DNA from: Myxococcota bacterium
GTDB taxonomy: Bacteria > Myxococcota_A > Polyangia > Palsa-1104 > JAEUJZ01
Reading direction: 5' to 3'
NCBI GenBank assembly: GCA_025057315.1
Contig: JANWXW010000147.1
Coordinates: 12,420 to 76,419, forward strand
Length of the DNA: 64,000 nucleotides
Part shown: positions 9,153 through 28,530 of the stretch, piece after piece
Numbering within the stretch: position 1 is the stretch's first letter
How the letters are laid out: each line of letters opens with the position of its first letter
Program-made: the position numbers and the translations under genes
The notes under the pieces: model-generated
Database searches by the model: none
Seen by the model: only the letters and a program-made list of their open reading frames with translations
What the model was told of the DNA's origin: nothing

Positions 9153-9158
9153 CCTACC

Positions 9159-10359: not shown

Positions 10360-10373
<14 letters not shown>
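9159..10373 (-). CDS. DUF790 / Bax1-like endonuclease (XPB-associated nuclease family)
   Basis: 404 aa, TTG start overlapping the XPB stop by 14 nt. The C-terminal region (LEVLGYWSREAV) resembles the Bax1 nuclease core. It is a partner of the adjacent XPB-like helicase. Confidence 0.5.
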
Positions 10374-11729
<1,356 letters not shown>

Positions 11730-11777: not shown

Positions 11778-11889
11778 CAGAAGCGGGCCGCCGCCGCCAG
11801 GCCATCAGAGCGGGATCGACCCGCTGCGGGGCGCTGTGCACCTCCATCTTGATCGCCGAAGCGGGCCGCCGCCAGGCCATCAGAGCGGG
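11778..11889. repeat. two copies of a ~35-45-nt imperfect direct repeat (GAAGCGGGCCGCCGCC[GCC]AGGCCATCAGAGCGGG) with a 77-nt period. The second copy contains the stop codon of the GspE-like gene.
   Basis: Read directly from the sequence. Also visible as the duplicated LMAWRRPASA in the shadow ORF. Confidence 0.6.
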
Positions 11890-13616
11890 CAGGCGGCGCG
11901 GACCTCGCCCAGGTCGGTCAGGCCCTCTAGGGCCTTGGCGATGCCGTCCTGGCGCAGGGTGCGCATGCCGTCCTGACAGGCCTGGGCGTGCAGCTCGTTG
12001 ACTGGGGCGCGCCCCCGCAGCAGCCGGCGCAGCGCCGGGCTGCCCTGCAACAGCTCGTGCAGCGCCAGGCGCCCCTGAAAGCCGCTCCCCTGGCAGATCT
12101 CGCAGCCCACCGGGCGGTACAGGGGCGCATCCGGTGCCACGCCCAGCTCGGCCAGGCCAGGCTCGCCGTACTCGGCGGCCAGGGCCCGCCACTCCGCCTG
12201 CTGCAGCTCGTAGGGCTGCAGGCACGCCTCGCACAGCTTGCGCACCAGGCGCTGGGCCAGCACGCCGAGCAGCGCAGTGCCTAGGTGGTCGGGATCGCCC
12301 CCCAGCTCCAGCAGGACCTGCAGCGCCTCGGCCGCCCCGTGCGCGCGCAGCCCGGCCAGCACCAGATGCCCGCTCAAGGCTGCCTCCAGGGCCGCCCCAC
12401 AGGCCTGCCGGTCGCGCAGCTCGCCGATCATGATCACGTCGGGATCGGCCCGCAGCAGGCCGCGCACCGCGGCCGGCACGTCCAGGCCCGGCTGCAGCGA
12501 CACCTGGCGCAGTCCGGGCTGGACCCGCTCCACCGGGTCCTCGACGGTGCCAATCATCCGGTCGGGGCGATTGAGGTGGTTCAGGGCCGCATGCAGCGTG
12601 GTGGTGCGCCCTGAGCGGGGCGGACCCGCAACGAGCAGCAGCCCCCAGGGCCGCTCCAGCAGCTGCTGCAGGCCCACCAGGTTGCGCTCAGAGAACCGAA
12701 GCTGCTCCAAGGTCGGCGGCTGGCCGCCGGGCAGCACATGCAGCACCACGTCCTGCAGGCCGCCGTGCAGCGGCACGGTGGCCACCCGCAGCACGATGTC
12801 GCTGCCACCCTCGCGGCGGATGCGCAGCATCCCCTGGCGAGGCAGCGTCTCGTCCTGGGGCTCCAGGCTGCTCAGGCTCTTGATGCAGGACAGCATCGGC
12901 GGGTGGTACTCGGCGGGCAGGGTGCGGAACGGCCGCAGCCGACCATCCAGACGCAGGCGGACCTGAACCGGCCCCTGCTCGGCCGAAGGCTCGATGTGGA
13001 TGTCGGTGGCGCCGCGCTCGCAGGCCTCGCCGAGCAGGCCCGCCACCAGCGCGACCACCTGGTCCTCGTCCGGGGGCGGCTCGCGCACCTCCTCGATGAC
13101 CACCTCCACCGAGGGCTCCTCGGGCACCGGCTCGGTCGCCGGGGTGGCCGCCGGCGGGCTGGCCGCGGTCCCGTAGAGGTGCCCGTAGAAATGATCGATG
13201 AAGGCCTCGATGTCCTCGCGCAGGCCCACGCAGTACTCAATCTGCATCCCGGGCAGCAGCGCGCGCACCTCATCGCGCTTGATAAGGTGGTTGGGGTCAT
13301 CGATGAGCACCGTCACCCCATGGTCATGGGCCTTGATGGGCACCCAGCGATCCGTGCGCAGGTAGCCGGGCTTGAGGCTGCGCAGCACCGCCCGCGGCGG
13401 CGGCAGGCGGGGGTCAAAGGGAACATAGGGGCAGCCGTAGTAGTGGGCCAGCGCCGCGCCGATGTGGGCCTTGGGCACCCGGAAGCGCCGCATCAGGACC
13501 TGCTCGACGTCCAGCTGGAGCTCCTGGGCCTCGGCAGCGGCTTGGAGCAGATCCGCCTCGTTGATCAGCCCCTGCTCGATGAGCAGGTCGAACTTGGTGC
13601 GGATGCTCGCGGTCAT
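11880..13616 (-). CDS. GspE/PilB-family secretion-type ATPase homologue with degenerate nucleotide-binding motifs
   Basis: N-terminal GspII_E_N-like domain. Walker A reads GPPRSGRTT instead of the usual GPTGSGKTT. Asp box DPDVIMIGELRD is intact. His box is degraded (LAGLRAHG). Tetracysteine motif present (CEAC...CEIC). Confidence 0.8.
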   Translation of the reverse strand: MTASIRTKFDLLIEQGLINEADLLQAAAEAQELQLDVEQVLMRRFRVPKAHIGAALAHYYGCPYVPFDPRLPPPRAVLRSLKPGYLRTDRWVPIKAHDHGVTVLIDDPNHLIKRDEVRALLPGMQIEYCVGLREDIEAFIDHFYGHLYGTAASPPAATPATEPVPEEPSVEVVIEEVREPPPDEDQVVALVAGLLGEACERGATDIHIEPSAEQGPVQVRLRLDGRLRPFRTLPAEYHPPMLSCIKSLSSLEPQDETLPRQGMLRIRREGGSDIVLRVATVPLHGGLQDVVLHVLPGGQPPTLEQLRFSERNLVGLQQLLERPWGLLLVAGPPRSGRTTTLHAALNHLNRPDRMIGTVEDPVERVQPGLRQVSLQPGLDVPAAVRGLLRADPDVIMIGELRDRQACGAALEAALSGHLVLAGLRAHGAAEALQVLLELGGDPDHLGTALLGVLAQRLVRKLCEACLQPYELQQAEWRALAAEYGEPGLAELGVAPDAPLYRPVGCEICQGSGFQGRLALHELLQGSPALRRLLRGRAPVNELHAQACQDGMRTLRQDGIAKALEGLTDLGEVRAACPL

Positions 13617-13655: not shown

Positions 13656-15158
13656 TCATTGTAACGCGGTTTGCGGGCGGTCGGTGGGCCCGATGACGGG
13701 AGCTGAGGGAGGCCGAGGGTCTTGGAGGGCGGCCGCCGCAGCACCGCCCCTGGGCGATGAACCATGGGGGCGGGCCTCCTGCTGGAGCGGGCCGTAGACG
13801 TAGACGCCGCGCTGCTGGCCCAGCAGCTGGTAGCGGGCGCGCGCCACGGCGAGGACCTCGGGCAGGAACCGCTCGTCGTGGCCGCCGCCGGGCGGCTCCT
13901 CCAGCGGGAAGTGCAGCACCAGGCGCTCGATCTGGCCGGCCCTCAGCGCCCGCAGCAGGGGCGAGGGATCCCACTGTCCCCGGCGCGCCAGGTTGGTGGC
14001 GAGGAAGGGCACGACCACCGGCGGCCGGCCCAGCGCGGTGGTGTACCAGGTGGACTCGGCCAGCACCGGACCCGAGCGGCCCTGCAGCTGGGCGCGGGTG
14101 TAGGCCATCTGCTGGCGTACCCCGGGCAGGCGCACCAGGGCCAAGTAGGCCGCCCCCCCGACGGCCATGCAGCAGGTGACCAGCAGGTGCAGCAGCACCG
14201 CACGCCGCCACCAGCAGCCTGCCATGGCGATGGTAAGATGCAGGCACATCGCCGTCAGCAGCTCCATCGTGTGGTTGGAGCCCGAGCCGCACCGGCCCAG
14301 CACCAGCGTCCAGGGCAGGCCCACCAGCAGCGCGCCGGCAAAGGGCCCGAGCACCTGCCGGGTGTGCGCCGGCAGCTGGGCCCAGCGACCTAGCAGCCGC
14401 ACGGCCACCGCGAGCCCGGCCCCCCAGGGCAGCACGAAGCGGGCGCACTGGCTCAGAAAGAACAGCGGGCTCCAGTCCGCCATCGTCCACAGGACCAGGG
14501 GGGCGAACAGGCCCTGGCGCCACAGGAGCCACCCGACCAGGCCCGCGGTGCCCAGGGCCAGCACCAGGCCCTGCCGGGGGGCCCGCCGCAGCGCCCAGGC
14601 CAGGGTGCCCAGCGGCAGGACCACCAGGCTGTGCTTCATCATGACCGCGGCCACAAAGGCCACCGGCGCCAGCAGGGGCCAGCCGCGCACCCGCAGCGCC
14701 ACCAGGGTGATGCCGCCCAGGCCCAGGGCCAGAGCGGGCGCATCGGGCAGGCAGGTGGCCGCATGGTAGGAGACAAACAGCGTGCCGCCCAGCAGCAGGG
14801 CCGCCACCCAGCCGAGCAGGCGCGAGCCGGTGGCGGCATGGGCACAGGCACCCAGCAGGGCCATGGCCAGCACAAAGCCGGCCAGGGACACCACCCCACC
14901 GGTGCGCACGATCTCGCTGTCCGAGGGGGCGAGCGCTGCCACCAGGTGTAGAAACAGGGGCGGATAGTTGGACTGCCACAGGGGCAGGCCGGTCGGCTCA
15001 GTGTATAGATTATAGCCTCGGCGGAGCAGCCAGATCCAGGTGGCGGTGTCTCCCTCGGCATAGCTGAGCGGCACCCGGCCGCCCAGGGTGATCAGCCACA
15101 GCAGGGCACAGGCGAGGAAGCTGGCGACGATAAGGGCAAGGTGAAACCGGGGCACCAT
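13656..15158 (-). CDS. polytopic membrane protein, GT-C-type glycosyltransferase-like (DUF2029/GT87-like)
   Basis: Start ATG 15158 (MVPRFHL). More than 10 predicted TM helices. YPPLF loop motif after TM1. Large C-terminal soluble domain. Confidence 0.5.
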   Translation of the reverse strand: MVPRFHLALIVASFLACALLWLITLGGRVPLSYAEGDTATWIWLLRRGYNLYTEPTGLPLWQSNYPPLFLHLVAALAPSDSEIVRTGGVVSLAGFVLAMALLGACAHAATGSRLLGWVAALLLGGTLFVSYHAATCLPDAPALALGLGGITLVALRVRGWPLLAPVAFVAAVMMKHSLVVLPLGTLAWALRRAPRQGLVLALGTAGLVGWLLWRQGLFAPLVLWTMADWSPLFFLSQCARFVLPWGAGLAVAVRLLGRWAQLPAHTRQVLGPFAGALLVGLPWTLVLGRCGSGSNHTMELLTAMCLHLTIAMAGCWWRRAVLLHLLVTCCMAVGGAAYLALVRLPGVRQQMAYTRAQLQGRSGPVLAESTWYTTALGRPPVVVPFLATNLARRGQWDPSPLLRALRAGQIERLVLHFPLEEPPGGGHDERFLPEVLAVARARYQLLGQQRGVYVYGPLQQEARPHGSSPRGGAAAAALQDPRPPSAPVIGPTDRPQTALQ

Positions 15159-15447
15159 GGGTTGCGCGTGCGGTTGGCAGGCAGGGCGCAGCTGGGGCCC
15201 GTGCCCATGCCGCAGGAGCAGCAGCTGACATCGCGTGCCGGACCACGTGGGGGGCTTGCTACGCATCGAGCGGGGCCGTCGGCGGCCATGCGCGCCAAGA
15301 AGCAAGATGCCAAGGAGCAAGATGCGTACCCGGAGCAGGTTGCGGCCCTGCCTCGAGGGGCCAGCGGGGGGCGCTGTCGAGTTTTCACCGCTGCAGACGG
15401 GGGCTGTGGACGTGCCGGGCCGGGGTCGGGCTTGCTAAGATGGCCCG

Positions 15448-16842
15448 ATGCGGGTTCGGCTGCGCGGGGCGGGCCCTCTGCTCCGACCGTTCTTTGCCAT
15501 CTTGATCACGTGTGGGCTGCTGGCCTGGTTCTGCAGCCGCGACGAGGAGGCCAGGCGGGCGATGCTGCGCGTGCGCGACACGGCGTCGCTGGTGCGCGAG
15601 GCGCCGACGCTGCTGTGGCCGCCGTGGCGGGCGCTGCGGCTCTACGTCTCGATCGACGACGACGTGAGCCTCTACTATGAGCTGTCGCGGGTGGTGTTGG
15701 GGGAGGCGGCGGACGCCGAGCAGATGCTGCGGTTTGACCACCGGCCGGATCCGGCCGAGGTGGCGGCGCTGCGGGCGCGGCTGGCCCAGGCGCGCGGCAG
15801 GCGGTGGCCGACGGGCCTGCAGCTGGGCTTCCCGCCGCTGTCGGTCCTGCTGATGGTGCTGCCGCGGCTGGCCGTGGACACGCTTGGGGCGTACCGGGTG
15901 GCGTTTGCGGTCCTGCTGGCCCTGCTGTACCTGGGGGCGTGGGGGGTGGCCGTGGCGGGGGCGGCAGGCCTGCCCCGGCGGGTGCTGTTGGGACGGATGG
16001 CGCTGGTGACGGCCTGCATGGGGCCGGTGCTGGTTGCCCGGCTGGATGTGCTGCCCGCGCTGCTGGTCGTCGCGGCGCTGGGGGCGCTGGCGCGGGGGTG
16101 GGCGCTGGCAGCGGGGCTGCTGCTGGTGCTGGGGGGGGCGGCCAAGCTCTACCCGTTGTTTTTGCTGCCGGTGTGGGCGGCGCTGCTGTGGGGCTGGGGG
16201 GGGGCGGCGCGCCGCCAGGCGGTGGCGCTGCTCGGTGGGCCGGCACTGCTCGGCGGGCTGGGCCTGCTGCTCGGCGGGCTGCCAGCGCTGGGGGAGCACC
16301 TGCGGCTGTTTGCCCGGCGGCCGGTGCAGATCGAGTCGGTGGTCGGGGCCGTGCTGCACGCTGCGGGCTGGCCGAGCGACTATGGGTTTGGCTCCAACAA
16401 CCTGCTGCTGCCCCCGTGGGTGCCCATGGCGCTGGACGGTCTGCTGGGGGGGGCGGTGCTGGCCCTGGCGGCCGGGGCAGGGCGGTGGGCGGCGCGGCAC
16501 CGCGATGGAGCGGCGCGGCGGCAGGCGCTAACCTGGTTTGCGGTGGCGACGGTGCTGGTGGTCATCACGACGAGCAAGGTGCTGTCGCCCCAGTATCTTG
16601 TCTGGCTGGTGCCGCCGGCGGCGATGCTGCCAGGCAGGGCCGGGCGCCTGGTGCTGCTGGGGGTGTGCGCGGCGATGTTGCTGACGCAGGTCTACGTGCC
16701 CTTTATGTACAGCTGGCTGATGGAGCGGCGGTGGCCGCTGCTGCTGCTGGTGCTGGTGCGCAACGGCCTGCTTGTGGGGCTGGCCGCGGGGGTGCTGGGC
16801 GTCCTGGTTCGCTCAGGGCGCCGGGACGAGGCCCTCGCGTAG
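15448..16842 (+). CDS. polytopic membrane protein, DUF2029/GT87-like glycosyltransferase
   Basis: 464 aa, multi-TM. AKLYPLFLLP motif. Paralogous architecture to 13656..15158, divergently transcribed. Confidence 0.5.
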   Translation: MRVRLRGAGPLLRPFFAILITCGLLAWFCSRDEEARRAMLRVRDTASLVREAPTLLWPPWRALRLYVSIDDDVSLYYELSRVVLGEAADAEQMLRFDHRPDPAEVAALRARLAQARGRRWPTGLQLGFPPLSVLLMVLPRLAVDTLGAYRVAFAVLLALLYLGAWGVAVAGAAGLPRRVLLGRMALVTACMGPVLVARLDVLPALLVVAALGALARGWALAAGLLLVLGGAAKLYPLFLLPVWAALLWGWGGAARRQAVALLGGPALLGGLGLLLGGLPALGEHLRLFARRPVQIESVVGAVLHAAGWPSDYGFGSNNLLLPPWVPMALDGLLGGAVLALAAGAGRWAARHRDGAARRQALTWFAVATVLVVITTSKVLSPQYLVWLVPPAAMLPGRAGRLVLLGVCAAMLLTQVYVPFMYSWLMERRWPLLLLVLVRNGLLVGLAAGVLGVLVRSGRRDEALA

Positions 16843-17979
16843 CAGAAACGCCGCCAGGCGCTGGGCCACCAGGTCGGCGGCAAAGGGGGTATGGTGGCAG
16901 TGGTCGTAGAAGAGGGGCCGGTGGGGAGCCTGCTGCCAGGCAGCGCGCAGGGCGGGCAGCAGGTCCTCGTGGGGCAGGTGGTGGCGGGTCATGAGGTCGC
17001 GGAAACGGCGCTGGGGCTCGTTGTGCACCTGGTGCGCCTCGACCTGATGGCGCACCGGCAACAAGGCTGCGGCGAGGCGGAAGCCGTGCTGGCGGCCGGC
17101 TTGCTCGATGCGTCCGAGCGCCGCCTCGATGCGCTGCCAGGCCGCCGGGGACCAGGCCGCCCCCCAGTCGCGCGCCTGGCGGACGATGAGGGCGTCGAAG
17201 GCCTCCGGATCGGTGCGCCAGTTGCCGGGGCGGAGCTGACGGCCGCGGGCAAACTCGTGCACCCAGGCCTGTCCCTCGGCGCGCAGCTCGGCCCAGTGGG
17301 TCCACTCGAACCACAGGCGCTGGGCGCTCTGGTAGACCAGGCCTGCCAGGTAGCTCTTGCCGAGCCAGCCAGACAGGGAGCGGGGGCGCATGCGCAGGGA
17401 CGGATAGCCGTCGTTCAGGTACATGGCCACCAGGACCAGGTCGGGCTGCATGGCCAGGCCGGCGTCGCGCAGGATGGCATACTCGGTCTCTGTGTCTGCG
17501 CTGCCGATGCCCAGGTTGATGACGCGGACCCGGCGCCCGCTGGCCTGCAGCAGCCGCTCCAGCCGGAAGGCGAAGGTTTCCTCGTCGGGCAGGTAGTCGG
17601 CCAGGGTAATGGAGTCGCCCAGAAGCAGCACGCGGAACTCGCCGGGCGGCTTGGGTCCTACCTCGGGCCCGCGGTAGCCGGCCGAGTTGGTGGTGAAGGT
17701 GATGTCCCGGCCAGAGACGAAGTGATGGCGGATGCGGATGCGCGCGCGCGGCACCAGGCCCACCGAGCCGGTGCGGCTGTAGCGGTAGGCCTCGTTGCCG
17801 AAGGCGTGTTGCTCCAGCTGGCGCGGGCCGGTGGCGGCCTGCAGGGAGTCCACCACGACCATCTGCGACTGGCCCAGACGGCGACAGAGCCACTCGCCCA
17901 GGCCTGTCAGGAGCAGCACCGTGACCAGCAGCAGGGCCAGGTTGGGCAGCAGCCTGCGCAGAAGGGGGGGCAGGCCCAT
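16813..17979 (-). CDS. SGNH/GDSL-family hydrolase (esterase/acyltransferase-like)
   Basis: Start ATG 17979 (MGLPPLL, N-terminal TM). GDS block VLLLGDSITLADY. Later DxxH-like region. Convergent 30-nt overlap with 15448..16842. Confidence 0.7.
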   Translation of the reverse strand: MGLPPLLRRLLPNLALLLVTVLLLTGLGEWLCRRLGQSQMVVVDSLQAATGPRQLEQHAFGNEAYRYSRTGSVGLVPRARIRIRHHFVSGRDITFTTNSAGYRGPEVGPKPPGEFRVLLLGDSITLADYLPDEETFAFRLERLLQASGRRVRVINLGIGSADTETEYAILRDAGLAMQPDLVLVAMYLNDGYPSLRMRPRSLSGWLGKSYLAGLVYQSAQRLWFEWTHWAELRAEGQAWVHEFARGRQLRPGNWRTDPEAFDALIVRQARDWGAAWSPAAWQRIEAALGRIEQAGRQHGFRLAAALLPVRHQVEAHQVHNEPQRRFRDLMTRHHLPHEDLLPALRAAWQQAPHRPLFYDHCHHTPFAADLVAQRLAAFLLREGLVPAP

Positions 17980-17980
17980 G

Positions 17981-18199
17981 CTAAAAGAGCATGTAGATGT
18001 AGCTGGAGATGGCGCTGCTGTTGGCCAGCACGATGAGGCCGCCGATGCTGACCAGCATGAGCACGGTGGGCAGCAGCCACCAGGCCTTGCGCTCCCTGAG
18101 GAAGCCCCACACGTCGGCCAGCAGCGTGCGGTTGCGCAGGGCCCGCAGGCGGGCCTCGCGACCAAGAAAGGAGTCGTGGGTGTTGTGCATGGTGGTCAC
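17981..18199 (-). CDS. DUF5989-like small membrane protein
   Basis: 72 aa, single TM (WWLLPTVLMLVSIGGLIVL). Sits immediately downstream of the carbamoyltransferase, as is typical for this family. Confidence 0.5.
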   Translation of the reverse strand: MTTMHNTHDSFLGREARLRALRNRTLLADVWGFLRERKAWWLLPTVLMLVSIGGLIVLANSSAISSYIYMLF

Positions 18200-18216
18200 T
18201 TACGTCACTTGGTCTT

Positions 18217-19978
18217 TTAGTCTTTGGCGTATGTTTCGCTGTCCCAGATGTGCTGGGGGTTGTCCTCGCGGCGGATGCAGTAGTCGCCCATGATGAGATA
18301 GTCGATGCCGGTGCCCATCATGCAGCGGTAGGCATCCAGGGGGGTGCACACGATGGGCTCACCGCGGATGTTAAACGAGGTGTTGACCAGCATCGGGACG
18401 CCTGTGCGTCGGCCGAAGGCGCGGATGGTATCGTAATAGAGCGGGTTGTTCTCCCGGCGGATGGTCTGCAGGCGGCCCGAGTCGTCCACGTGGCGCACGG
18501 CGGGCAACCGGTCGCGGTGGGCAGGCCGGATGGGGTAGACCATGAGCATGAAGTCACAGGGTGCGGGCAGCGGCGAGTCGCACTCGAAGTAGGTGTCGGC
18601 GTCCTCGGCGCACACGACGGGGGCGAAGGGGCGAAACCGCTCCCGGTGCTTGACCTTTTCGTTCAGGATGTCGCGCATCCGGGGGTTGAGCGGGTTGGCC
18701 AGGATGCTGCGGGCGCCGAGCGCGCGGGGGCCCCACTCCATGCGGCCCTGCATCCAGCCCACCACGTGGTCCTCGGCCACCAGGCGCGCCGTGGTCTCGA
18801 CGATCTCCTCGTCGCTGCGCAGCCGCTGGTAGCGGACGCCGTTCTGGTCCAAAAACGCGCCGATCTCGGCGGAGGAGAAGCTGGGGCCGAGGTAGGGGCT
18901 GCTTAGGGTCCAGTGGCGGGGCCGGCCCAGCAGGGTATGGTAGATGTAGGCCGCCGCGCCGATGCTGGTACCGGCGTCGCTGGCATTGGGCTGGATCCAG
19001 ACCCGGCGGAAGGGGGTCAGGCGGAGGATTTTGCCGTTGAAGACGCTGTTGAGCGCCACGCCACCCGCCATAACCAGGTTGTCGCAGCCGGTTTCGCGGT
19101 GCAGGTGGCACAGCATGCGACAGAGCACGTCCTCGGTAAGGAGCTGCACGGCCGCGGCGATGTCCTGCAGGCGCGGGGTCATGACCGAGTCGGGCGGCGC
19201 CGCTGGTCCGCCGAGCAGGTCACACAGCTTCTGCGACGGCATGCGCTCGGCATAGTGGTAGCAGAAATAGGACATGTCCAGGCGCAGACTGCCGTCCTCG
19301 CGCACCTGGACGACGTCGCGCAGCCGGGCATAGAAGGGGTTGGTGGCCCGGTCGCGGTTGCCATAGGCGCTCAGGCCCATCACCTTGTACTCGGAGTTGT
19401 TGACGCTGAAGCCGAGGTAGGCGGTGATGGTGGAGTAGAGCAGGCCCAGCGAGTGGGGAAAGCGGATGTCTTTGCGCAGGTGAATGCGGGTGCCCTCGCC
19501 GATGCCATAGGAGGCGGTGGTCCATTCGCCCACGCCGTCCACGGTCAGGATGGCAGCGCGCTCGAACGGGCTGACCAGGAAGGCGCTGGCTGCATGGGCC
19601 ATGTGGTGCTCCAGAAACAGCACGCTGCCGCGGTAGCCCAGGGCCTTGCGCAGCGTCCGGCGCAGCCGGATCTTTTCGTTCAGCCAGGACGGCAGCGAGG
19701 AGACAAAGGTCCGGTAGCTGCGCGGAAAGGACTCCAGGTGCTGACACAGCACGCGCTCGAACTTGAGCAGCGGCTTCTCGTAAAAGCCAATGTAGTCCAC
19801 ATCTTGGATGCGCAGGCCCTGGCTCTCTAGACAGTAGCGGATGGCGTGGATGGGGAACGACTGGTCGTGTTTGATGCGGGTAAAGCGCTCCTCTTCGGCA
19901 GCGGCGACGATGACACCGTCGCGCAGCAGGGCTGCTGCTGCGTCGTGGTAGTGGCAAGAGACGCCCAAGATGTTCATG
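18217..19978 (-). CDS. carbamoyltransferase, NodU/CmcH (HypF-like) family
   Basis: Start ATG 19978 (MNILGVSCHYHDAAAALL). Conserved N-terminal ASKHA-like and C-terminal YrdC-like carbamoyltransferase regions. About 587 aa. Confidence 0.85.
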
Positions 19979-19979
19979 G

Positions 19980-20510
19980 CTAGTACTGGCGAAAATAGGC
20001 ATCCAGCGAGCGCGCCTCTAGGTCGAGGTCCTGCCAGAACGTCTCCTTGTCGGGAGCCGGGGCCAGGTCCAGGAAGCGTCGGCGCAGCAGGCGCGCCACC
20101 AGCGCGGTGGGTCCCAGGGCGCCAAAGTAGATGATGGTCAGCAGGATCGCGTTGACGCCTAGGGCCACGTGGCGGCCGAAGGTACGCATGCCGTGCAGGA
20201 GGCTGCGCCAGAGCGGGCCTGCGCCGTCGTCCCGCGGCCGGCCTGGCAGCAGCCGCAGGGCATTGAGCAGCAGCACCACGCCCATCCCGCCCAGGATGTG
20301 GGGGATGCCGACGTGCTCGCGTACCAGCGCCACCTTGCGCGAGAGCATGTGGTGGGTCAGCAGCGCAAACACAAGCAGACCGAGGTGGTAGCCGACCAAC
20401 GCACCCACGCGGCCCGGCGGCAGCCGGTCCCCTGGGGGGCTGGGGGACGGGCTGGACCAGACGGACCGCAGGGGCGGCGGGGTGGCAGCAGGCGCCGTGG
20501 GCAGCCTCAT
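19980..20510 (-). CDS. SxtJ-like small membrane protein (hypothetical)
   Basis: Three predicted TM helices. Position immediately upstream of the carbamoyltransferase matches the SxtJ-like family context. Start uncertain. Confidence 0.4.
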   Translation of the reverse strand: MRLPTAPAATPPPLRSVWSSPSPSPPGDRLPPGRVGALVGYHLGLLVFALLTHHMLSRKVALVREHVGIPHILGGMGVVLLLNALRLLPGRPRDDGAGPLWRSLLHGMRTFGRHVALGVNAILLTIIYFGALGPTALVARLLRRRFLDLAPAPDKETFWQDLDLEARSLDAYFRQY

Positions 20511-20540
20511 GGACGGGTCTCTCCCCCGCTCGGCCAGGGC

Positions 20541-21737
20541 CTAGCCTTCGGCGGCCATGCGGGGTACAGGCTTGCCCAGCTGGATGACGGCAGGTCCTGT
20601 CCACCGCCGTAGGGGGGCCAGACCGGCCGACCTTGCGCAGCGCTCCTGCGCCATTTGGTAGACCCGTTCATGCCGCCAGATGACCTCATCCCATGCAAAG
20701 CGGTCGAGATCAAGTTTGGCCTCCTCGGCCATGCGATGCCGCAGCTCGGCATCGCACAGCAGGCGGACGATGTAGTCGATAAATTCCTCCCAGGTGTCGG
20801 CCAGAAACCCGTGCCGGCCGTGCACCAGCGCATCGCTGACCCCGCCGTGGTTGCGCGCCACGACCGGCAGGCCAACGCAGCGCGCCTCCAGGGTGGCGAT
20901 GCTCAGCGCCTCCTTGATGGTGGGCAGGACAAAGAGCGCAGACCGCGCCAGGATGTGCTTGATCTCCTGCCTGGACAGCAGGCCTGGCAGCTCCAGCAGG
21001 TCCTCAACGCCCAGCCGATGGGCCTCCCGCTCGACCCGTGGCCGCTCGGGGCCGTCTCCCACCAGCGTGAAGCGCGGACAGATGCCGGGGGGCAGACGGC
21101 GCATAATCTCCGGGATGGCGCGGACAAAGTCGGTGGGCCGCTTGCGGCGGGTAAAGCGCATCACGCTGGTGACGCGCAGCTCTGAGGTGGGTGGCCGCTG
21201 CACTCGCCAGGCGTCCAGGTCGATGCCGTTGGGCAGCACGACGATGTCGTCTCGGCGGTAGATGCGGCGCTGTTCCTGCACCACGTACCGGCTGACGCCG
21301 GACAGGACGTCTGGGCGGCCCAGCCAGCCTGACACCGAGTCCAGCAGACGCAGCAAAGTACGCTGGCCGCGCAGCACCGAATGCTCGGTGACCACCGACG
21401 GGATGCCAAGGCGGCGCGCGACGTGGACACCGCCGATGGCCAGGGGCGATAGGCCGGCGTGACAGTGCAGCAGGTCGAAGCGCTCCCGGCGCACGATCTC
21501 CTCCAGCACGTCGAGGGCACGGCGGTTGGCGATGGTTCGCAGCACGGGCAGCAAGGGAACCCGCAGCCGGTGCACGGGGAAGCCATCCTGCCCGGGTGGC
21601 CCCGGCGTGGCGGTGATGACGTGGGCCTCATGGCCGCGCCGGGTGAGCTCACGTGCCAGGTCGCGCATGTGCAGCTCCAAGCCGCCCACCCGGGGCAGGT
21701 ACCAGTCGCTGACCAGAGCTATCTTAAGGGACGGCAC
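20541..21737 (-). CDS. glycosyltransferase family 1 (GT-B, GT4-like)
   Basis: 398 aa. N-terminal GT4 domain (LVSDWYLPRVGG). C-terminal Glycos_transf_1 motif (EALSIATLEARCVGLPVVA, the E-x7-E region). Confidence 0.85.
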   Translation of the reverse strand: MPSLKIALVSDWYLPRVGGLELHMRDLARELTRRGHEAHVITATPGPPGQDGFPVHRLRVPLLPVLRTIANRRALDVLEEIVRRERFDLLHCHAGLSPLAIGGVHVARRLGIPSVVTEHSVLRGQRTLLRLLDSVSGWLGRPDVLSGVSRYVVQEQRRIYRRDDIVVLPNGIDLDAWRVQRPPTSELRVTSVMRFTRRKRPTDFVRAIPEIMRRLPPGICPRFTLVGDGPERPRVEREAHRLGVEDLLELPGLLSRQEIKHILARSALFVLPTIKEALSIATLEARCVGLPVVARNHGGVSDALVHGRHGFLADTWEEFIDYIVRLLCDAELRHRMAEEAKLDLDRFAWDEVIWRHERVYQMAQERCARSAGLAPLRRWTGPAVIQLGKPVPRMAAEG

Positions 21738-21821
21738 GCCGGCACCTGACGCAAGAACCGTTCCTCCCTCCTCGCGGCAGGGGGCCTCGCCGGCTGACAG
21801 TGGGGGTGTCGAGGATCTGAC

Positions 21822-22943
21822 TCAAGAGGCGTGTCGAATATCTGACGCAGGGGCAGGTTGGTCCTCGCCGCGTGGGCTTGACAGATTGGATGAACCACCG
21901 GACCTGAACCTGGCCATGCGCCGTCCGATTGAGAGTAGGGTTTGCGGACGGCGCCAGCTGTCCAGCGATGAGACGCGATGGACACAACCGATGGTGCAGG
22001 TGGGGGCACACTGCTTGGGCGTGTCAAACTCGCGCCGGATGTCCTCGATCGTGTACTCGTCCAGGGGAATGGCGGGGTAGCCGCGCTGCTGGGAGCAGTA
22101 GTGCACCAGGCCGAACTCGCAGATATATAGATAGCGAGCGCCGGCACGGCACTGCCAGTCGTTGGGCTCGCCGCGCACGAGCCTGTGCTGGAACCCATGC
22201 ACCCGGCTGTAGAGGCCCTGGCCGTAGGCCACGGCCTCCCGGTAGATGGCATGCTCCCGCGGGCTGAGCGGCCGGAGCTGGCCCGAACCGTCGTGGATGA
22301 TGCCCACCGAAGTGGTGAAGCCGAGCTCGGCGGCACGGCGGGCAATGATCACCGCGTCCTCCGGCCGGCGGACCCCGGAGCCCAGCACCGTGTTCACGTT
22401 GACGTGGAACTCGGCCAGCTCCGACAGATGTTGCAGCTTGCGGTCGAGCGTGCGCAGGCTCTTTTGGGACGCCTCGTCGGGCTCGACGTTGTCGATGCTG
22501 ATCTGGAGGTGGTCCAACCCCGCTTCGTTCAGGCGCCGGATGCGCTCCGGCCCGAGGAAGAAGCCGTTGGTGATGAGCCCGGCCATCATCCCCCGGGCGC
22601 GGATGTGGGCGATGATGGTATCGAGGTCAGGGTGCATCATGGGCTCGCCCCCGCTCAGGGTGACGATGGAGGTGCCCAGCGCCGCGAGCCGATCGATGCG
22701 CCGGCACACCTCGGCCACGGGAACGGGGTCGGAGACCTTGTCATACTCGTTGCAGTAGCTGCACGACAGGTTGCACCGGCGCATGGGAACGATGTGCGCC
22801 AGGATGGGGTGCGACTTGTGGAGCAGGGCCCACAGAATCAGCCGGGCCTCGCGCAGGGACCGGGTGAGCTTGCGTCTTCCGGGTCGCATCGGGGGTGTCC
22901 TCGCTGCCTGGTATGCGGGTTCAAGCAGGAGCTGTGCCATCAT
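21822..22943 (-). CDS. radical SAM protein with a C-terminal Cys cluster (HpnH-like / SPASM-like)
   Basis: CNLSCSYC (the CxxxCxxC radical-SAM motif) followed by a GGEP motif. C-terminal CAPTCTIGC cluster. Start is either ATG 22943 (23-nt overlap with the downstream gene) or ATG 22889. Confidence 0.8.
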   Translation of the reverse strand: MMAQLLLEPAYQAARTPPMRPGRRKLTRSLREARLILWALLHKSHPILAHIVPMRRCNLSCSYCNEYDKVSDPVPVAEVCRRIDRLAALGTSIVTLSGGEPMMHPDLDTIIAHIRARGMMAGLITNGFFLGPERIRRLNEAGLDHLQISIDNVEPDEASQKSLRTLDRKLQHLSELAEFHVNVNTVLGSGVRRPEDAVIIARRAAELGFTTSVGIIHDGSGQLRPLSPREHAIYREAVAYGQGLYSRVHGFQHRLVRGEPNDWQCRAGARYLYICEFGLVHYCSQQRGYPAIPLDEYTIEDIRREFDTPKQCAPTCTIGCVHRVSSLDSWRRPQTLLSIGRRMARFRSGGSSNLSSPRGEDQPAPASDIRHAS

Positions 22944-23799
22944 GGGCTGGACGGGGGGGGGATCGCACAGCCCGCCACAGCCTGCGGCCGCCCAGGGCCA
23001 GGACCACCAGGCCGCTGGCGGCCGTGGCCAGGACGTAGCTGATGGACCGATCGAGCAGCGCGATGGCCAGTGCGGTTTCGACCGGCACTCCGTAGAGACA
23101 CAGGGTGGCGGTCAGGCTCGCCTCCACCACGCCCAGGCCGCCCATCATCGGCACCGCAGCGCCGGCGGCCGCTGCAAAACACAGCCCGACCGCCTGCGAG
23201 GGCTTCAGCCACACGCCGAAAGCCGCCGCTGCGGCTGCCAGACGGAGGATGTCTGCAGCCCAGACCAGCAGCGAGATGCCCAGGGCCCGCAGCAGGGGCC
23301 CCCGCGGCAGATGCACGCGGGCCAGCTGGGCTCGCAGCCGCTGACGCCAGCCATGCTCCCCAGAGGCCGCACGCAGCAGCGCCAGCGCCGCGACCCCGGC
23401 TGCCAGGACAAGCGCCAGCGGGCCCAGGTGGCCGCGCCGGGCGACATCGGGCAGGGCCGGCAGGGCCAGGAGCAGAAACAGCGGCGCCGGCACCCAGTCG
23501 AGCAGGCGGTCGTAGGCTGCCGACGCGGCGGCTCGTCGCAAGTCCACCCGCGTGCGCAGCTGCAGCACCACGACGCGGCCGATCTCGCTGCCGAGGCGGC
23601 CAGGCGTGACGTTGTTGAGGAAGGTAAAGGCCAGGTTGGCCAGGATCGTCTCGCGCAGCCGCACCGCCTCCTCCAGGCCCAGCAGGAGCGTCTGCCAGCG
23701 ACGCCCACCCAGATAGACCCAGGCGGCATACAGGGCCGCCACCGCGAGCACCAGAGCGGGGTTGGCGCCGAGCAGCGCCTCCACAGAGCGCTGCAGCAT
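22921..23799 (-). CDS. UPF0104 / lysylphosphatidylglycerol-synthase-TM-like (flippase-like, HpnL-like) membrane protein
   Basis: Start ATG 23799 (MLQRSVEALL). 8 predicted TMs. Charged loop RLGSEIGRVV typical of UPF0104. 8 nt downstream of the MMPL gene. Confidence 0.65.
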   Translation of the reverse strand: MLQRSVEALLGANPALVLAVAALYAAWVYLGGRRWQTLLLGLEEAVRLRETILANLAFTFLNNVTPGRLGSEIGRVVVLQLRTRVDLRRAAASAAYDRLLDWVPAPLFLLLALPALPDVARRGHLGPLALVLAAGVAALALLRAASGEHGWRQRLRAQLARVHLPRGPLLRALGISLLVWAADILRLAAAAAAFGVWLKPSQAVGLCFAAAAGAAVPMMGGLGVVEASLTATLCLYGVPVETALAIALLDRSISYVLATAASGLVVLALGGRRLWRAVRSPPRPAHDGTAPA

Positions 23800-23807
23800 G
23801 TGCTGGA

Positions 23808-26294
23808 TCACGGCAGGCGTGCCTGGCGCCGCGCCAGGATCTGCGCCAGGATTGGCAGCACCAGCAGCGCCGCCATCAGGCAGGTCACCTCGCCCAGGTC
23901 CGCCAGCAGGCCAAAGGAGCGCAGCGCCCGGTTGTGCGACAGCAGCAGGGAGCTGTAGCCGATGATGGTCGTCAGCGAGCACAGCGCGACCGCCGAGCCG
24001 GTGTGGGTAATGACGTCCCGGACGCGGTCGCGGCCCTGGCGCAGCCGCGCCCAGATGTTGGCCGCATAGTCGGCGCCGATCCCCAGCGTGATTGGCAACC
24101 CGACGAAGTTCATAAAGTTAAGCTTCAAGCCAATGGCCCCCAGCAGCCCCCCTAGCCAGCACAGGCCCACGCTCAGCGACACCAGGACCGGCAGGGCGCC
24201 GGGCCAGCCGAACGACAGCAGCATCAGCAAGCTCACCCCGACCAGAGCCGCCAGCGTGATGCGCGGGCCGTCCTGGATGATGGTCGAGATCATGCCGGCA
24301 AAGACGGTGGCCGTGCTGGCAGCGACCCAGGTCTTGCCCTCTGCCTCCACCTGGAGCACCTCGGCGATGCGCAGCAGGTCCCGCCCATTCCAGGCATAGA
24401 AGGTAGTCGGGTCGGCGTCGATGCCGATGAGGCGGCCCCGGGTGCCATCGATCTCGGTGAACGCCTCGCGCACAATCTGCGGCAGGTCGTCCACACCGAT
24501 GCGGCGCAGGTAGTCGGGCGGACGGAAGCGATCGACCTCGCGGCGCTCCTCGTCCGTCATCAGGTGCATGTGGCGGTCGATCTTGCGGCGGATGCGGGCC
24601 AGGATCTCCAGCTTCTCGTCCTGCTCGGAGGGCAGCACGGAGTTGAGCGTCCGCACCACGCTGAGCACATGGCGGGCGCCCAGGGCTCGATCCTTGGCCC
24701 GGATCGCCTCGGCGACGACGTCGGCCTGCTCGGGGCGGTCGACCAGCAGCACGCCGTCGTTGCCGATGTGGCCGGCGCCCACCGCCCCCATGCCCATCAT
24801 CTCCATCCGTCCCCACAGGCGCTGCGCCTCGGTCTGCTCGCTGCGCAGGTTCTCGAAGTTCCACTCCAGCGGGTCGGCAGCGTAGCGGACCAGGGGCACA
24901 ATGGCCGCCACCACCAGGGCCAGGCTCGCCAGCCCGAGCCAGCCCGCGTAGCGTTCGGCCAGGCGGCCTACGGCGGCAAAGGGTCGCTCCCACAGGTTCA
25001 TGCGCGGCGTGAAGAGGCCCGGCCACCGCCGCTCGCCCCAGATGATCATGGGTGGCACGAGCAGGAAGGCCATCAGCCACACCAGCAGCATGCCGGCGCC
25101 GCCCACCAGCCCGAACTGGCTGAAGCCGCGGAAGCTGGTTCCCAGCAGGCAGCCATAGGCGATGCTGGCTGCAGCCACTGCCGTGATGGTCGCCAGCAGG
25201 GTGGAAGACATGGCTCGGGCCAGCGATGGCCCGACGGCCAGACCCCGACTGCGCTCCTCCCCGAAGCGCGCCACCAGGATGATCGGCGTGTTGATGCCGT
25301 TCCCCAGGATGATCGAGATGAGGAACGACGTGTTCATGTTCAGGTGCTGGATGGTAAAGCGCGCCAGGACCAGCGCCAACAGCAGCCCCAGCACGGCGGG
25401 TGCGCCCACCACCAGCAGCAGGGCCGGCCGGCGAAAGTAGGAGTAGATGGCCAAAAAGACCAGGGTGCCACACAGCAGGGTGGCCAGGGTGAGGTCGTTG
25501 CGAATCGCCTCGCTGTCATCCAGAACGTGGGCAATGTGGCCGGTGTAGCGGACGGTCAGCTTCGGGTGGAAGGAGGTCGGCCGGAGGCGGCGCACCTCAG
25601 AGCGCACGGCCGCCATGGTCTCGAAGTCGCCGGCGGTGGCCAGGCCATCGCGGCGCTTCCACAGCATGATGCCCAGGTAGTGGAGCCCGTCCTCGCTCGC
25701 CAGGAAGTAGTCCGTTTGCGAGCGCGGCGGCACCTTCTGCTCCAGCCCGCGGCGCAACTCGCTCAGCTCTTGCTCCGGATCGCCTTCCAGATCCACCAGG
25801 AAGGGGGAGGTGCGCCGGGCAATGATCCGGTCCAGCAGCGCCTCGGCGCGCTCCAAATCGGCCCGCTCCGCGTACAGCCACCGCCATCGGGCGGCAAACT
25901 CCGGCCCCTCCGTGTCCGGCCGCCACTGGATCTCGGTGAAGACGCGGGGGATCATCGCCTCCAGGCGGGGACGGAGGGCCTCTGCGAAGCGGCGGTTTGC
26001 CTCCTGGTCTGGACTCTCGATGATCATCACCAGGTTGGTGGCGCTTTTCTGCCGCGGCGTGACCGTACGGATCGCCCGCACAGCGGGGTGGTGCTCGGGG
26101 AGCAACTCGACCAGATCGGTGCGCAGCTCGAGCTGGCTAACCGGCACGAGCGCAGAGAGCGCCAGCAGCCCTAAGGCGCCGAGCACCAGGCTGGTTTTTC
26201 GCTCCGCAAACCGGACGTAGCCGGCAAAGAGGCGATCAAAGAGGCGATCGACGACGCGGTTTGGAACACCGTGCTGGCTGGGAAGACTGGTCAA
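23808..26294 (-). CDS. MMPL/RND-superfamily transporter (HpnN-like lipid exporter)
   Basis: 828 aa. Two 6-TM bundles, each followed by a large periplasmic loop (a 12-TM RND-like fold). MMPL-like conserved TM4/TM10 regions. Confidence 0.8.
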   Translation of the reverse strand: MTSLPSQHGVPNRVVDRLFDRLFAGYVRFAERKTSLVLGALGLLALSALVPVSQLELRTDLVELLPEHHPAVRAIRTVTPRQKSATNLVMIIESPDQEANRRFAEALRPRLEAMIPRVFTEIQWRPDTEGPEFAARWRWLYAERADLERAEALLDRIIARRTSPFLVDLEGDPEQELSELRRGLEQKVPPRSQTDYFLASEDGLHYLGIMLWKRRDGLATAGDFETMAAVRSEVRRLRPTSFHPKLTVRYTGHIAHVLDDSEAIRNDLTLATLLCGTLVFLAIYSYFRRPALLLVVGAPAVLGLLLALVLARFTIQHLNMNTSFLISIILGNGINTPIILVARFGEERSRGLAVGPSLARAMSSTLLATITAVAAASIAYGCLLGTSFRGFSQFGLVGGAGMLLVWLMAFLLVPPMIIWGERRWPGLFTPRMNLWERPFAAVGRLAERYAGWLGLASLALVVAAIVPLVRYAADPLEWNFENLRSEQTEAQRLWGRMEMMGMGAVGAGHIGNDGVLLVDRPEQADVVAEAIRAKDRALGARHVLSVVRTLNSVLPSEQDEKLEILARIRRKIDRHMHLMTDEERREVDRFRPPDYLRRIGVDDLPQIVREAFTEIDGTRGRLIGIDADPTTFYAWNGRDLLRIAEVLQVEAEGKTWVAASTATVFAGMISTIIQDGPRITLAALVGVSLLMLLSFGWPGALPVLVSLSVGLCWLGGLLGAIGLKLNFMNFVGLPITLGIGADYAANIWARLRQGRDRVRDVITHTGSAVALCSLTTIIGYSSLLLSHNRALRSFGLLADLGEVTCLMAALLVLPILAQILARRQARLP

Positions 26295-26531
26295 TGGAAC
26301 ACCTGCGGCCTGGCCCTCTGGACCCCGCCCAGAACAACGGCCGGGCGGCTTGCCCGATCCGGATCAGCTTGCGTGGACAAAGCATATGCATGCCCTTTGC
26401 GGCGTGCAACAAAGGAACAGCCCGAGGCCCTGTCGGACAGGTGTCAATTTTTCACCACCGGAGGTGAAGGTCTGGCACATGGTTGGGCGCAGCACGCTAC
26501 CACGAAGGCCGCTGGGTCGGATACAGTGCAG

Positions 26532-27776: not shown

Positions 27777-27813
27777 GGCGCGCCTGCGGGCCCACGCTAG
27801 CATGGGAGCTCGC

Positions 27814-28530
27814 ATGGAGGTCTGCATCACCATCGACGTCGAGCAGGACTGCCCGCCCTACCTTGACAGCTACCGCGGCATCGAGGAGGGCATGCCCCAG
27901 CTGATGGCGCTGCTGCGTGAGGAGGGGGTGCCAGCCACCTTCTTTACAACGGGCGATGTCGCCCGCCGCTATCCTGCGGTGGTGCGCCGCATCGTGGCTG
28001 AAGGGCACGAACTCGGCGCCCATGGCGACACCCACCGCCGGTTCAGCGAGCTGGATGCTGCCCAAGCTCGCGCCGAGCTGGAGGCTGCCAGCGCCACCCT
28101 GCGTGCCTTTGCCCCGGTGGTTTCCTTCCGCGCGCCCAACCTCGACCTACCGGCCTGTGTTCTGCCCCTGTTGCGCCAGCACGGCTACCGCATCGACTCC
28201 TCCCAGGGCCGGCACAAACACGGTCTGTACTTCCGCCGCCCGCGCGTGCACCGAGAGGCAGGGCTGTGGCGCGTGCCGGCGTCCCTGCCACCGAGCGTGC
28301 TGCGGGCACCTGGTCCGCTGCCGAATCTGCTGTGCGCGCTGTGCGAGAGCCCCTTTGTGCCTTTTTACCACCCATGGGACTTTGTCGACCTGCGGGGCGC
28401 GCCGATCCCGCTGGACTGTCGCCTGCGCAGCGGGGAGGCGGCCCTGCGGCACCTGCGCCGCACGATCCGTTGGCTGCGGCGGCGGGGTGCGCGCTTTCTG
28501 CGCCTGGCCGACCTGTCCTTCCCCGATTGA
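27814..28530 (+). CDS. polysaccharide deacetylase (NodB homology, CE4)
   Basis: ITIDVEQD (the TFDD-like Asp motif), HELGAHGDTH (His-His metal site) and a RAPN motif. 238 aa. Confidence 0.8.
   Translation: MEVCITIDVEQDCPPYLDSYRGIEEGMPQLMALLREEGVPATFFTTGDVARRYPAVVRRIVAEGHELGAHGDTHRRFSELDAAQARAELEAASATLRAFAPVVSFRAPNLDLPACVLPLLRQHGYRIDSSQGRHKHGLYFRRPRVHREAGLWRVPASLPPSVLRAPGPLPNLLCALCESPFVPFYHPWDFVDLRGAPIPLDCRLRSGEAALRHLRRTIRWLRRRGARFLRLADLSFPD

Follow-up and report, generated by a model that had tools for sequence, protein, structure and literature searches.

A carbamoyltransferase module with SxtJ-like, DUF5989 and SGNH partners at the end of a putative amino-sugar lipid operon in a Myxococcota genome

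The DNA analyzed here is a 64-kb window of a Myxococcota genome (contig JANWXW010000147.1 of assembly GCA_025057315.1; all coordinates are those of this whole window, whose GC content is 69%) that encodes, side by side on the minus strand, a GT4 glycosyltransferase, a small membrane protein of 176 amino acids (aa; p176), a carbamoyltransferase (CT), a DUF5989 protein and an SGNH/GDSL-fold protein. Our main finding is that the last four of these genes are found together across bacteria and archaea far beyond chance and, by comparison of related loci, are a mobile module that is separate from GT4. The initial annotation had described all 5 genes as one cassette, but as a natural unit this cassette does not hold up because GT4 belongs to a host gene set and the other four travel without this GT4. 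The explanation that we find most plausible, and that we hold tentatively, is that a membrane-tethered CT O-carbamoylates the headgroup of an N-acetylglucosamine (GlcNAc) or glucosamine (GlcN) lipid in the cytoplasm while the SGNH domain acts on the outside.

The synteny of the module was studied by searching 80 genomic loci that encode CT relatives (51% to 68% identity) with the proteins of the window. The conserved last ~80 residues of p176, which we call p80 and which end in YYRQF, are encoded at 66 of these loci, usually a few bases upstream of CT, and DUF5989 is found near CT at 67 of them. These small open reading frames (ORFs), on whose conservation in orthologous loci the initial annotation had made its case depend, are thus shared between two domains of life. 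An SGNH homologue was detected at no fewer than 30 of the 80 loci, usually directly downstream of CT; as the sensitivity of tblastn is weak, 30 is a minimum. All-against-all ORF clustering of 73 loci (L001 to L073; median GC content 35%, mostly from DPANN archaea and the bacterial candidate phyla radiation, CPR) recovered the same partners, with CT at 71, p80 at 62, DUF5989 at 52 and SGNH at 35 loci (plus 6 in a second cluster). GT4-like genes accompany CT at only 9 and radical-SAM-like genes at 5 of the 80 loci, both at paralogue-level identity, and homologues of the MMPL and flippase-like proteins encoded upstream in the window accompany it at none.

The genes that surround the module elsewhere belong to sugar pathways. 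Among L001 to L073, they include epimerases/dehydratases (23 loci), GT4 and GT2 glycosyltransferases (17 loci each), Polysacc_synt (Wzx-type) flippases (9 loci) and DegT aminotransferases (8 loci), and a C-methyltransferase is also found. In one RefSeq plasmid context, the order CT-SxtJ-DUF5989 stands beside exosortase/EpsI, and in a second one GDSL-SxtJ-like-DUF5989-CT-GT4 stands beside a flippase and polysaccharide export genes. Every genomic context that we examined is compatible with the cell-surface glycan or glycolipid that had first been suggested as the target.

CT contains full-length Carbam_trans_N (PF02543; 270.6 bits, E = 3.2e-80, residues 4 to 343) and Carbam_trans_C domains (PF16861; 233.4 bits, E = 1.5e-69, residues 398 to 571) and aligns end to end with solved proteins of the Protein Data Bank (PDB), namely 7xb6 (5.7e-107), GdmN (1.7e-90), NovN and TobZ. 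Both lines of evidence bear out its original placement in the NodU/CmcH superfamily. H11 of CT aligns with H27 of GdmN, while H124, H128, D147 and D334 align with H133, H137, D156 and D333. In GdmN, H27 is placed to deprotonate the acceptor hydroxyl and the other four residues are iron ligands (PMC9633730). The catalytic histidine and all four iron ligands are thus present in CT, for which the initial annotation had proposed that a lack of conserved residues would speak against the assignment. In the YrdC domain, the blocks GRMEWGPRALGARSI, KHRERFRPFAP, HVDDSGRLQ and NTSFN are kept in common with 7xb6 and GdmN. Judged from its sequence, CT is an ATP-dependent class III O-carbamoyltransferase composed of Kae1-like and YrdC-like parts with intact catalytic residues, and its predicted activity is a transfer that depends on carbamoyl phosphate and ATP.

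Besides this two-domain fold, CT shares with TobZ, GdmN, NovN and 7xb6 the histidine at the position of GdmN H27, the H/H/D/D iron site and presumably also the carbamoyl-AMP mechanism. These relatives differ from CT in acting alone on soluble antibiotics, without SxtJ, DUF5989 or SGNH partners, and GdmN has an additional dimerization domain (682 aa compared to 586 aa for CT). NodU belongs to the same superfamily, but membership of CT in NodU proper was rejected since the curated equivalog cut-off is missed by far (NF041651; 159.6 bits compared to 1000, E = 1.2e-46, residues 271 to 542 only). NodU and NolO O-carbamoylate a lipo-oligosaccharide built on GlcN, in systems that also have a NodB-type deacetylase; unlike in those systems, there is no NodA or NodC at the window locus, and we know of no accessory membrane proteins for NodU.

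The closest relative of CT among 5.8 billion proteins other than itself is 70% identical. The 119 non-self matches listed are 64% to 70% identical and come from DPANN archaea, CPR and other bacteria with genomes of 30% to 70% GC; 96 of them are exactly 586 aa long and the remainder 581 to 609 aa. Those listed matches that bear organism names are all archaeal, nearly all of them from DPANN archaea. A literature search returned nothing for "DUF5989" or for the PDB codes 7XB6 and 8HIU.

The small protein encoded upstream of CT had been called SxtJ-like, a label that stands as remote similarity over the last ~60 to 80 residues but not as membership in the Pfam family. No Pfam or NCBIfam family matches p176, and PF19588 (SxtJ) does not match it even at E <= 1; this profile also has no match among 25 short p176 homologues, and none of 10 long p80-family proteins passes its cut-off. 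As a control, the RefSeq "SxtJ family membrane protein" of Planctomyces pPL62-1 reaches 41.8 bits against a cut-off of 24.4, while an SxtJ-family protein of Ensifer pT173d that adjoins CT and DUF5989 remains under the threshold with 21.4 bits. The pPL62-1 protein is 30% identical to p176 over the final 60 aa (BLASTP E = 1e-5 in a single comparison) and aligns with it at 72% in hhalign, with a terminal YF(R/K)Q(F/Y) motif in the aligned part. We consequently describe p176 as a putative, remotely SxtJ-like protein in the position of SxtJ.

Residues ~95 to 176 of p176 form the p80 domain, here ending in YFRQY, and are preceded by one or two more hydrophobic helices, giving three hydrophobic segments in total. 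An AlphaFold2 model (predicted local distance difference test score, pLDDT, of 76) has helices at residues 34-65, 73-86, 99-141 and 169-175, and a re-entrant hairpin for the hydrophobic segment of p80 was discarded because the model gives one unbroken helix from 99 to 141. The p80 profile matched 1163 cluster representatives among 1.84 billion. At 36 of the 73 clustered loci, p80 is directly preceded by a two-helix ORF of ~66 aa, p66, that has no Pfam match (e.g., L023:1004-1201 and L012:9540-9740, both on the plus strand). Fusions of p66 and p80 exist at the size of SxtJ (144 aa at L088, 143 aa in P0114 and 160 aa in P0119). The fusion at L088, which adjoins the closest relative of CT (70% identity), consists of p66 (hhalign 95.5%) joined to p80 (BLASTP against p176, 2e-14), and its residues 21 to 144 align with an SxtJ-family protein at E = 2e-4. 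Since this fusion bridges both parts to an SxtJ-family protein, p66 and p80 together look equivalent to SxtJ, and DPANN and CPR genomes appear to carry this equivalent split over two ORFs. The N-terminus of p176 itself was tested as a homologue of the p66 of DPANN archaea and rejected, as the similarity is not significant (hhalign probability 1.5%, E = 0.034).

The protein encoded downstream of CT matches DUF5989 (PF19451), the family to which SxtK belongs, with 65.9 bits (cut-off 27; E = 3.3e-18). It is a single-pass protein with one hydrophobic segment at residues 41 to 59. Across its homologues, the mean number of lysines and arginines is 2.9 on the N-terminal side of this helix and 0 on the C-terminal side, and this concentration of positive charge suggests an N-in topology.

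The SGNH protein as a single sequence remains under the Pfam cut-off (Lipase_GDSL_2, 24.4 bits compared to 32.9; ALGX, 7e-4), but its family can be recognized once 32 homologues linked to the module are aligned. G121, S123, D190 and H362 are invariant in this alignment and D122 and N189 are at least 90% conserved, which gives block I (G121-D122-S123), block III (N189-D190) and block V (D359-x-x-H362) of the catalytic site. The family profile matches solved SGNH esterases at 4.7e-15 as well as AlgJ, AlgX and PatB1. The protein can be assigned on these grounds to the SGNH/GDSL hydrolase superfamily, and it occupies the position of SxtL. It has one N-terminal transmembrane anchor helix with 3.9 lysines and arginines on the N-terminal side compared to 2.0 on the C-terminal side, and its catalytic domain is probably extracytoplasmic. 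An AlphaFold2 model from the single sequence had a pLDDT of 40 and was unusable for a fold search. The hydrophobic segments of p176 (three), DUF5989 (one) and SGNH (the N-terminal anchor) argue for a membrane association of the module; neither CT nor GT4 has any.

A membrane component that is paired with an extracytoplasmic glycan-modifying domain of SGNH fold is also found in AlgI/AlgJ/AlgX, PatA/PatB and OatA. The membrane partners in the window differ from those of these O-acetylation systems in being proteins of one to three helices rather than MBOAT or AT3 channels, and the activated group would come from a cytoplasmic ATP-dependent enzyme. We know of no description of a system that relays carbamoyl groups across a membrane.

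The four families of the module are those of the adjacent saxitoxin genes sxtI (O-carbamoyltransferase), sxtJ (134 aa), sxtK (54 aa) and sxtL (GDSL lipase), and the initial annotation had overlooked that the SGNH gene completes this quartet. In the saxitoxin literature, SxtI is proposed to act together with SxtJ and SxtK, whose functions are unknown, and the role of SxtL as a decarbamoylase is a prediction. By family assignment, the window thus has the same four genes side by side, but in the order J-I-K-L instead of I-J-K-L, with a p176 that lies under the Pfam threshold for SxtJ and whose resemblance to SxtJ-family proteins is confined to the last 60 to 80 residues, and in a lipid/glycan operon context without any other sxt genes. 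Pfam scans of 38 window ORFs found no core sxt genes (sxtA-type polyketide synthase, amidinotransferase and others), and membership in a saxitoxin cluster was rejected on this basis.

The glycosyltransferase encoded 30 nucleotides (nt) upstream of p176 had been labeled GT1. Its Pfam matches are Glyco_transf_4 (98.9 bits, 4.4e-28), Glycos_transf_1 (93.7 bits, 1.2e-26) and PIGA (2.7e-7), and by these profiles it is a GT4 enzyme in the CAZy sense (GT-B) and not GT1. Among solved structures, it is closest to BshA and MshA, which are UDP-GlcNAc transferases. Membership in bacillithiol or mycothiol synthesis was rejected because every NCBIfam equivalog cut-off is missed (BshA, 106.4 compared to 273.7 bits; MshA, 69.5 compared to 462.5; GlcN_PG_synth, 24.4 compared to 480).

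GT4 orthologues of 54% to 60% identity are encoded at 5 other Myxococcota loci (L084, L085, L086, L090 and L091), and CT, DUF5989 and SGNH genes are found at none of the 5. All of them instead share genes that lie on the other side of GT4 in the window. A divergent Polysacc_deac_1 gene adjoins the GT4 orthologue at each locus; the window deacetylase is 52% to 58% identical to this gene at L084 to L086, and the genes at L090 and L091 are of the same family. Radical SAM (64% to 67% identity at L084 and L085), MMPL (62% identity at L084 and L086) and LPG_synthase_TM genes are each found at 4 of the 5 loci, and the position of the SRPBCC-like gene is filled at L084, L086 and L090, with 45% identity to the window protein at the first two and no Pfam match for the gene at L090. 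Given these loci without the module, the module can be understood as having been added behind GT4, the last gene of an operon that is inherited vertically. Heat-shock genes lie near the GT4 set at several loci (dnaJ near several of the orthologues, hrcA and dnaK in the window), suggesting a common chromosomal neighborhood. A Cu2_monoox_C protein (related to copper type II monooxygenases) is encoded at a distance of a few kb from this cluster in the window (32636-33607, plus strand) and likewise at L086 (4826-6166).

We think that this host set of deacetylase, GT4, radical SAM enzyme, MMPL transporter, flippase-like protein and SRPBCC-like protein probably makes and exports an amino-sugar lipid, by analogy to known operons. 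Its lipid character is suggested by the HpnN/BstA similarity of the MMPL protein, the MprF-type flippase domain and the SRPBCC-like protein. In Pseudomonas aeruginosa, the gpgSDF operon of glycosyltransferase, deacetylase and flippase genes makes GlcN-phosphatidylglycerol, and hexSDF of Clostridioides difficile is an operon for an aminohexosyl glycolipid. The window cluster likewise joins a glycosyltransferase, a deacetylase and a predicted flippase, but its GT4 scores 24 bits where the GlcN-phosphatidylglycerol synthase model requires 480, and the myxobacterial set also contains an MMPL pump, an SRPBCC-like protein and a radical SAM enzyme. We know of no carbamoylation in the gpgSDF and hexSDF systems. 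A hopanoid cluster of the hpnH-N type, which the combination of MMPL, LPG_synthase_TM and radical SAM genes had brought to mind, was discarded because the MMPL protein misses the HpnN cut-off (TIGR03480; 170.5 bits compared to 751.85, E = 4.7e-50; BstA, 1.1e-35, also far below its cut-off) and the score for the HpnH equivalog is likewise too low (45.6 bits compared to 225.05). No squalene-hopene cyclase was found among the window genes scanned, and the radical SAM enzyme has only generic matches (PqqE, MoaA and Tes).

Three further module loci deserve mention. At L089 (13144-18864), where CT is 68% identical, the module is adjoined by a GT2-YdjC fusion gene, two PMT_2 genes (ArnT-like GT-C) and a PAP2 phosphatase gene. 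This context may again combine a lipid-linked N-acetylhexosamine (HexNAc) with a deacetylase, and the gene content presumably recalls hexosamine addition to lipid A via an undecaprenyl-phosphate carrier. At L087 (4772-5944; CT 69% identical), a myo-inositol-1-phosphate synthase gene lies by the CT/DUF5989/GDSL module, which is further surrounded by a Wzx-type flippase, a nucleotidyltransferase and two radical SAM genes. At L076 (7520-13177), from a high-GC deltaproteobacterial metagenome-assembled genome (MAG), the order is DUF5989, class I methyltransferase, CT, p80 and SGNH, and the opposite strand encodes a second paralogue of SGNH.

GC content falls to 0.64 to 0.68 around CT, but this drop is due to codon positions 1 and 2, while GC content at third codon positions (GC3) of the module genes is 0.88 to 0.95 and thus equal to or above that of their neighbors. 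Because this GC3 is fully native, we see no compositional sign of recent transfer and rejected a recent horizontal acquisition as read from GC content. In a neighbor-joining tree (unsupported), the window CT groups with those of L088 and L089, unclassified contigs with bacterial-type neighbors, followed by MAGs of Gammaproteobacteria and Bdellovibrionales, all within a clade dominated by DPANN and CPR. This grouping with bacterial-type contigs, despite the matches named as DPANN, led us to soften an earlier view that the module had been acquired from DPANN archaea. As far as these comparisons go, the module is patchily spread over domains and not ancestral to the host operon, and we draw no further conclusion on its origin.

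From its site at the end of an aminolipid-type operon, the module most likely decorates the sugar of the host lipid. In the pathway that we propose, the BshA/MshA/PIG-A-like GT4 would attach HexNAc (probably GlcNAc donated by UDP-GlcNAc) to a lipid acceptor, and the NodB-type deacetylase could then free the amine of the product. In its YrdC-like domain, the soluble CT would convert carbamoyl phosphate and ATP to carbamoyl-AMP, and in the Kae1-like domain, which contains the iron, it would carbamoylate a hydroxyl of the sugar while being held by p176 and DUF5989 at the cytoplasmic face of the membrane beside the lipid-linked substrate. The MprF-type flippase-like protein and the MMPL/RND pump may carry the GT4 lipid product outward, where the SGNH domain could, after flipping, trim an O-acyl or carbamoyl group or relocate it.

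Several points weigh against this pathway. The organism is a metagenome-assembled genome without known chemistry, and the donor and acceptor of GT4 are guesses since every equivalog cut-off failed. The adjacency of GT4 and the module is found only in this lineage and is possibly an accident of insertion. CT is 60% to 70% identical to homologues in organisms without the myxobacterial GT4 cluster, which argues for an acceptor more generic than the host lipid. The 84-nt gap ahead of GT4 has room for a promoter, and an interaction of the small proteins with CT is hypothetical here as it is in the saxitoxin literature.

The strongest rival explanation is one that we consider possible but less probable: the module may carbamoylate some other envelope glycan (exopolysaccharide, O-antigen or core of the lipopolysaccharide, or a protein-linked glycan) on an undecaprenyl-phosphate-linked intermediate, with the adjacency to GT4 being accidental. 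Such a target would fit the plasmid modules in exopolysaccharide loci (exosortase/EpsI, oligosaccharide flippase and polysaccharide export genes), the nucleotide-sugar and Wzx-type glycan genes that neighbor the module in DPANN and CPR, and the GT4 orthologues that do without the module elsewhere, and the high identity of CT across organisms without the lipid cluster favors a common polyprenol-linked sugar as acceptor. What speaks for the host lipid instead is that the module follows 30 nt behind GT4 in a block with lipid-type and not Wzx/Wzy/Wza-type genes, and that no polysaccharide polymerase or export genes are found among the window genes scanned.

It is improbable in our view that the target is a small natural product that is secreted, in the way proposed for saxitoxin, with SGNH interconverting its congeners as a decarbamoylase. 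What has been published on these four genes together concerns the saxitoxin cluster only, the solved homologues GdmN, NovN and TobZ all act on antibiotics, and myxobacteria are prolific makers of natural products. However, the window genes scanned include no polyketide synthase, nonribosomal peptide synthetase, amidinotransferase or other sxt-type gene, the module is commonest in DPANN and CPR on contigs with glycan genes and not in biosynthetic clusters, and three membrane-embedded partners are poorly explained for a soluble metabolite. We give even less credence to an N-carbamoylation of the amine freed by the deacetylase, yielding a ureido sugar, for while amine-exposing deacetylases are encoded at the window locus and at L089 (the GT2-YdjC fusion), DegT aminotransferases lie near the module at 8 loci and class III carbamoyltransferases differ in transferring to N, O or S depending on the family member (PMC9633730), the characterized close relatives TobZ, GdmN and NovN are all O-carbamoyltransferases, CT keeps H11, the counterpart of the GdmN residue (H27) in contact with the acceptor hydroxyl, and most module loci have no adjacent deacetylase.

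If O-carbamoylation of the host lipid is nevertheless the preferred reading, it can be extended to a more general idea that we regard as speculative and rather unlikely as a whole: CT, an SxtJ-like protein (split or fused), DUF5989 and an outward-facing SGNH protein might constitute a dedicated membrane machine for carbamoylating lipid-linked sugars that was borrowed by the saxitoxin pathway, and its product here would be a carbamoylated amino-sugar lipid. To our knowledge, this lipid class is without prior description. In the boldest form of this idea, the small proteins and the outward SGNH domain would move either the modification itself or the lipid that carries it to the other side of the membrane, in analogy to MBOAT/AT3-SGNH acetylation systems or to ArnE/F flippases.

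The association of SxtJ and SxtK with carbamoyltransferases is already known and reflected in Pfam and RefSeq names (PF19588 SxtJ, PF19451 DUF5989), and the original description of the saxitoxin cluster reportedly noted it as well. New in our analysis are the recognition of the SGNH gene as a constant fourth member of the module, the apparently split form of SxtJ (p66 and p80) with a p80 family that is missed by Pfam, the 586-aa CT clade centered on DPANN and CPR, and the grafting of the module, as we interpret it, onto a conserved and uncharacterized Myxococcota operon of aminoglycolipid type. The roles of SxtJ and SxtK have been unsolved since the saxitoxin cluster was described, and the module offers a tractable route to them: its spread across domains in association with glycan and lipid genes opens these families to study in bacteria that make no toxin, and a host operon with the logic of gpgSDF supplies a concrete candidate substrate. 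A carbamate would neutralize or cap a polar headgroup and could alter the charge of the surface, the recognition between cells or how susceptible they are to antimicrobial peptides. The fact that DPANN and CPR organisms with their reduced genomes keep the module at 60% to 70% identity suggests that carbamoylated surface glycoconjugates are commoner than is now recognized.

The genes of the locus are listed in Table 1. The 5 ORFs annotated initially are genuine, co-oriented genes on the minus strand, with a GC3 of 0.84 to 0.95 across the called frames. Over 18.6 kb, the window matches contig JAVQWY010000034.1 (Myxococcales MAG GCA_033578775.1) at 99.9% identity, and independent NCBI gene calls on that contig match the window ORFs save two start codons. 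Two details of the initial annotation needed correction: its spacing stands, but the boundary given as 19978 is off by one base (19977), and the ORF reported as a 587-aa protein exists, but this length counts the stop codon and the protein has 586 aa.

Table 1. Genes of the module, the host set and the divergent pair in the window.
Feature	Coordinates	Strand	Support and remarks
SGNH/GDSL-fold protein, 388 aa	16813-17979	minus	Family profile
DUF5989 protein, 72 aa from GTG; 69 aa from ATG at 18190 (NCBI start)	17981-18199	minus	
Carbamoyltransferase (CT), 586 aa	18217-19977	minus	Pfam Carbam_trans_N and Carbam_trans_C
p176, small membrane protein, 176 aa	19980-20510	minus	ORF and NCBI call
GT4 glycosyltransferase, 398 aa	20541-21737	minus	GTG start
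Radical SAM enzyme	21822-22943	minus	Radical_SAM 2.4e-22; NCBI start 22889
MprF-type flippase-like protein	22921-23799	minus	PF03706 (LPG_synthase_TM) 2.5e-35; TIGR00374 flippase-like domain 3.6e-21
MMPL/RND transporter, HpnN/BstA-like	23808-26294	minus	MMPL 5.3e-24; opens the co-directional block
Divergent pair	26271-28530	plus	SRPBCC-like gene and NodB-type polysaccharide deacetylase gene
SRPBCC/lipid-binding-like protein (~420 aa)	26532-27776 (NCBI call)	plus	Polyketide_cyc2 7e-9
NodB-type polysaccharide deacetylase	27814-28530 (NCBI call)	plus	Polysacc_deac_1 1.5e-19

Read off the sequence, the spacers between GT4, p176, CT, DUF5989 and SGNH measure 30, 2 (TAG-CC-ATG), 17 and 1 nt (TAG-C-ATG), and the spacer between CT and DUF5989 becomes 26 nt if the ATG start of DUF5989 is used. 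The initial annotation overlooked that three co-directional genes (MMPL, flippase-like and radical SAM) extend the block upstream to 26294, so that 8 genes at 16813-26294 form one tight block on the same strand. From MMPL on, its spacers are 8 (from the MMPL stop codon to the flippase-like ATG), 31, 84 (21738-21821, between the radical SAM gene and GT4), 30, 2, 17 and 1 nt, where the 31 nt between the flippase-like and radical SAM genes assume the NCBI start at 22889, as the longer ORF from 22943 overlaps the flippase-like gene. None of the intergenic gaps of this block contains a terminator-like site. From its tight packing, the block is probably transcribed as one unit, and the single transcript first proposed for the 5 genes fits both the spacers and this lack of terminator-like sites. 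A promoter scan of the locus yielded no sigma-70-like site, which is uninformative for a myxobacterium.

A 464-aa ORF on the plus strand (15448-16842) runs toward the SGNH gene and shares 30 nt with its 3' end. The encoded protein has ~10 hydrophobic segments, an acidic "SIDDDVS" stretch past the first helix and no Pfam or NCBIfam match; a GT87/MptA-like GT-C identity was considered and rejected since it has neither a Pfam match nor similarity to the GT87-like neighbor at L084. Farther along on the minus strand lie a gene for a five-helix membrane protein of 500 to 554 aa without a family match (13656-15320), the T2SSE/MshEN secretion ATPase gene that it precedes (11880-13616) and a gene for a DUF790 protein beside a PhoD-like phosphatase (7581-10574). 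On the other side of the host set, the window encodes a TraA-like outer-membrane-exchange receptor with PA14 and thrombospondin type 3 repeats (29645-32575, plus strand), for which the corresponding NCBI call on JAVQWY010000034.1 matches Myxo_TraA_N, in support of the window being of myxobacterial origin.

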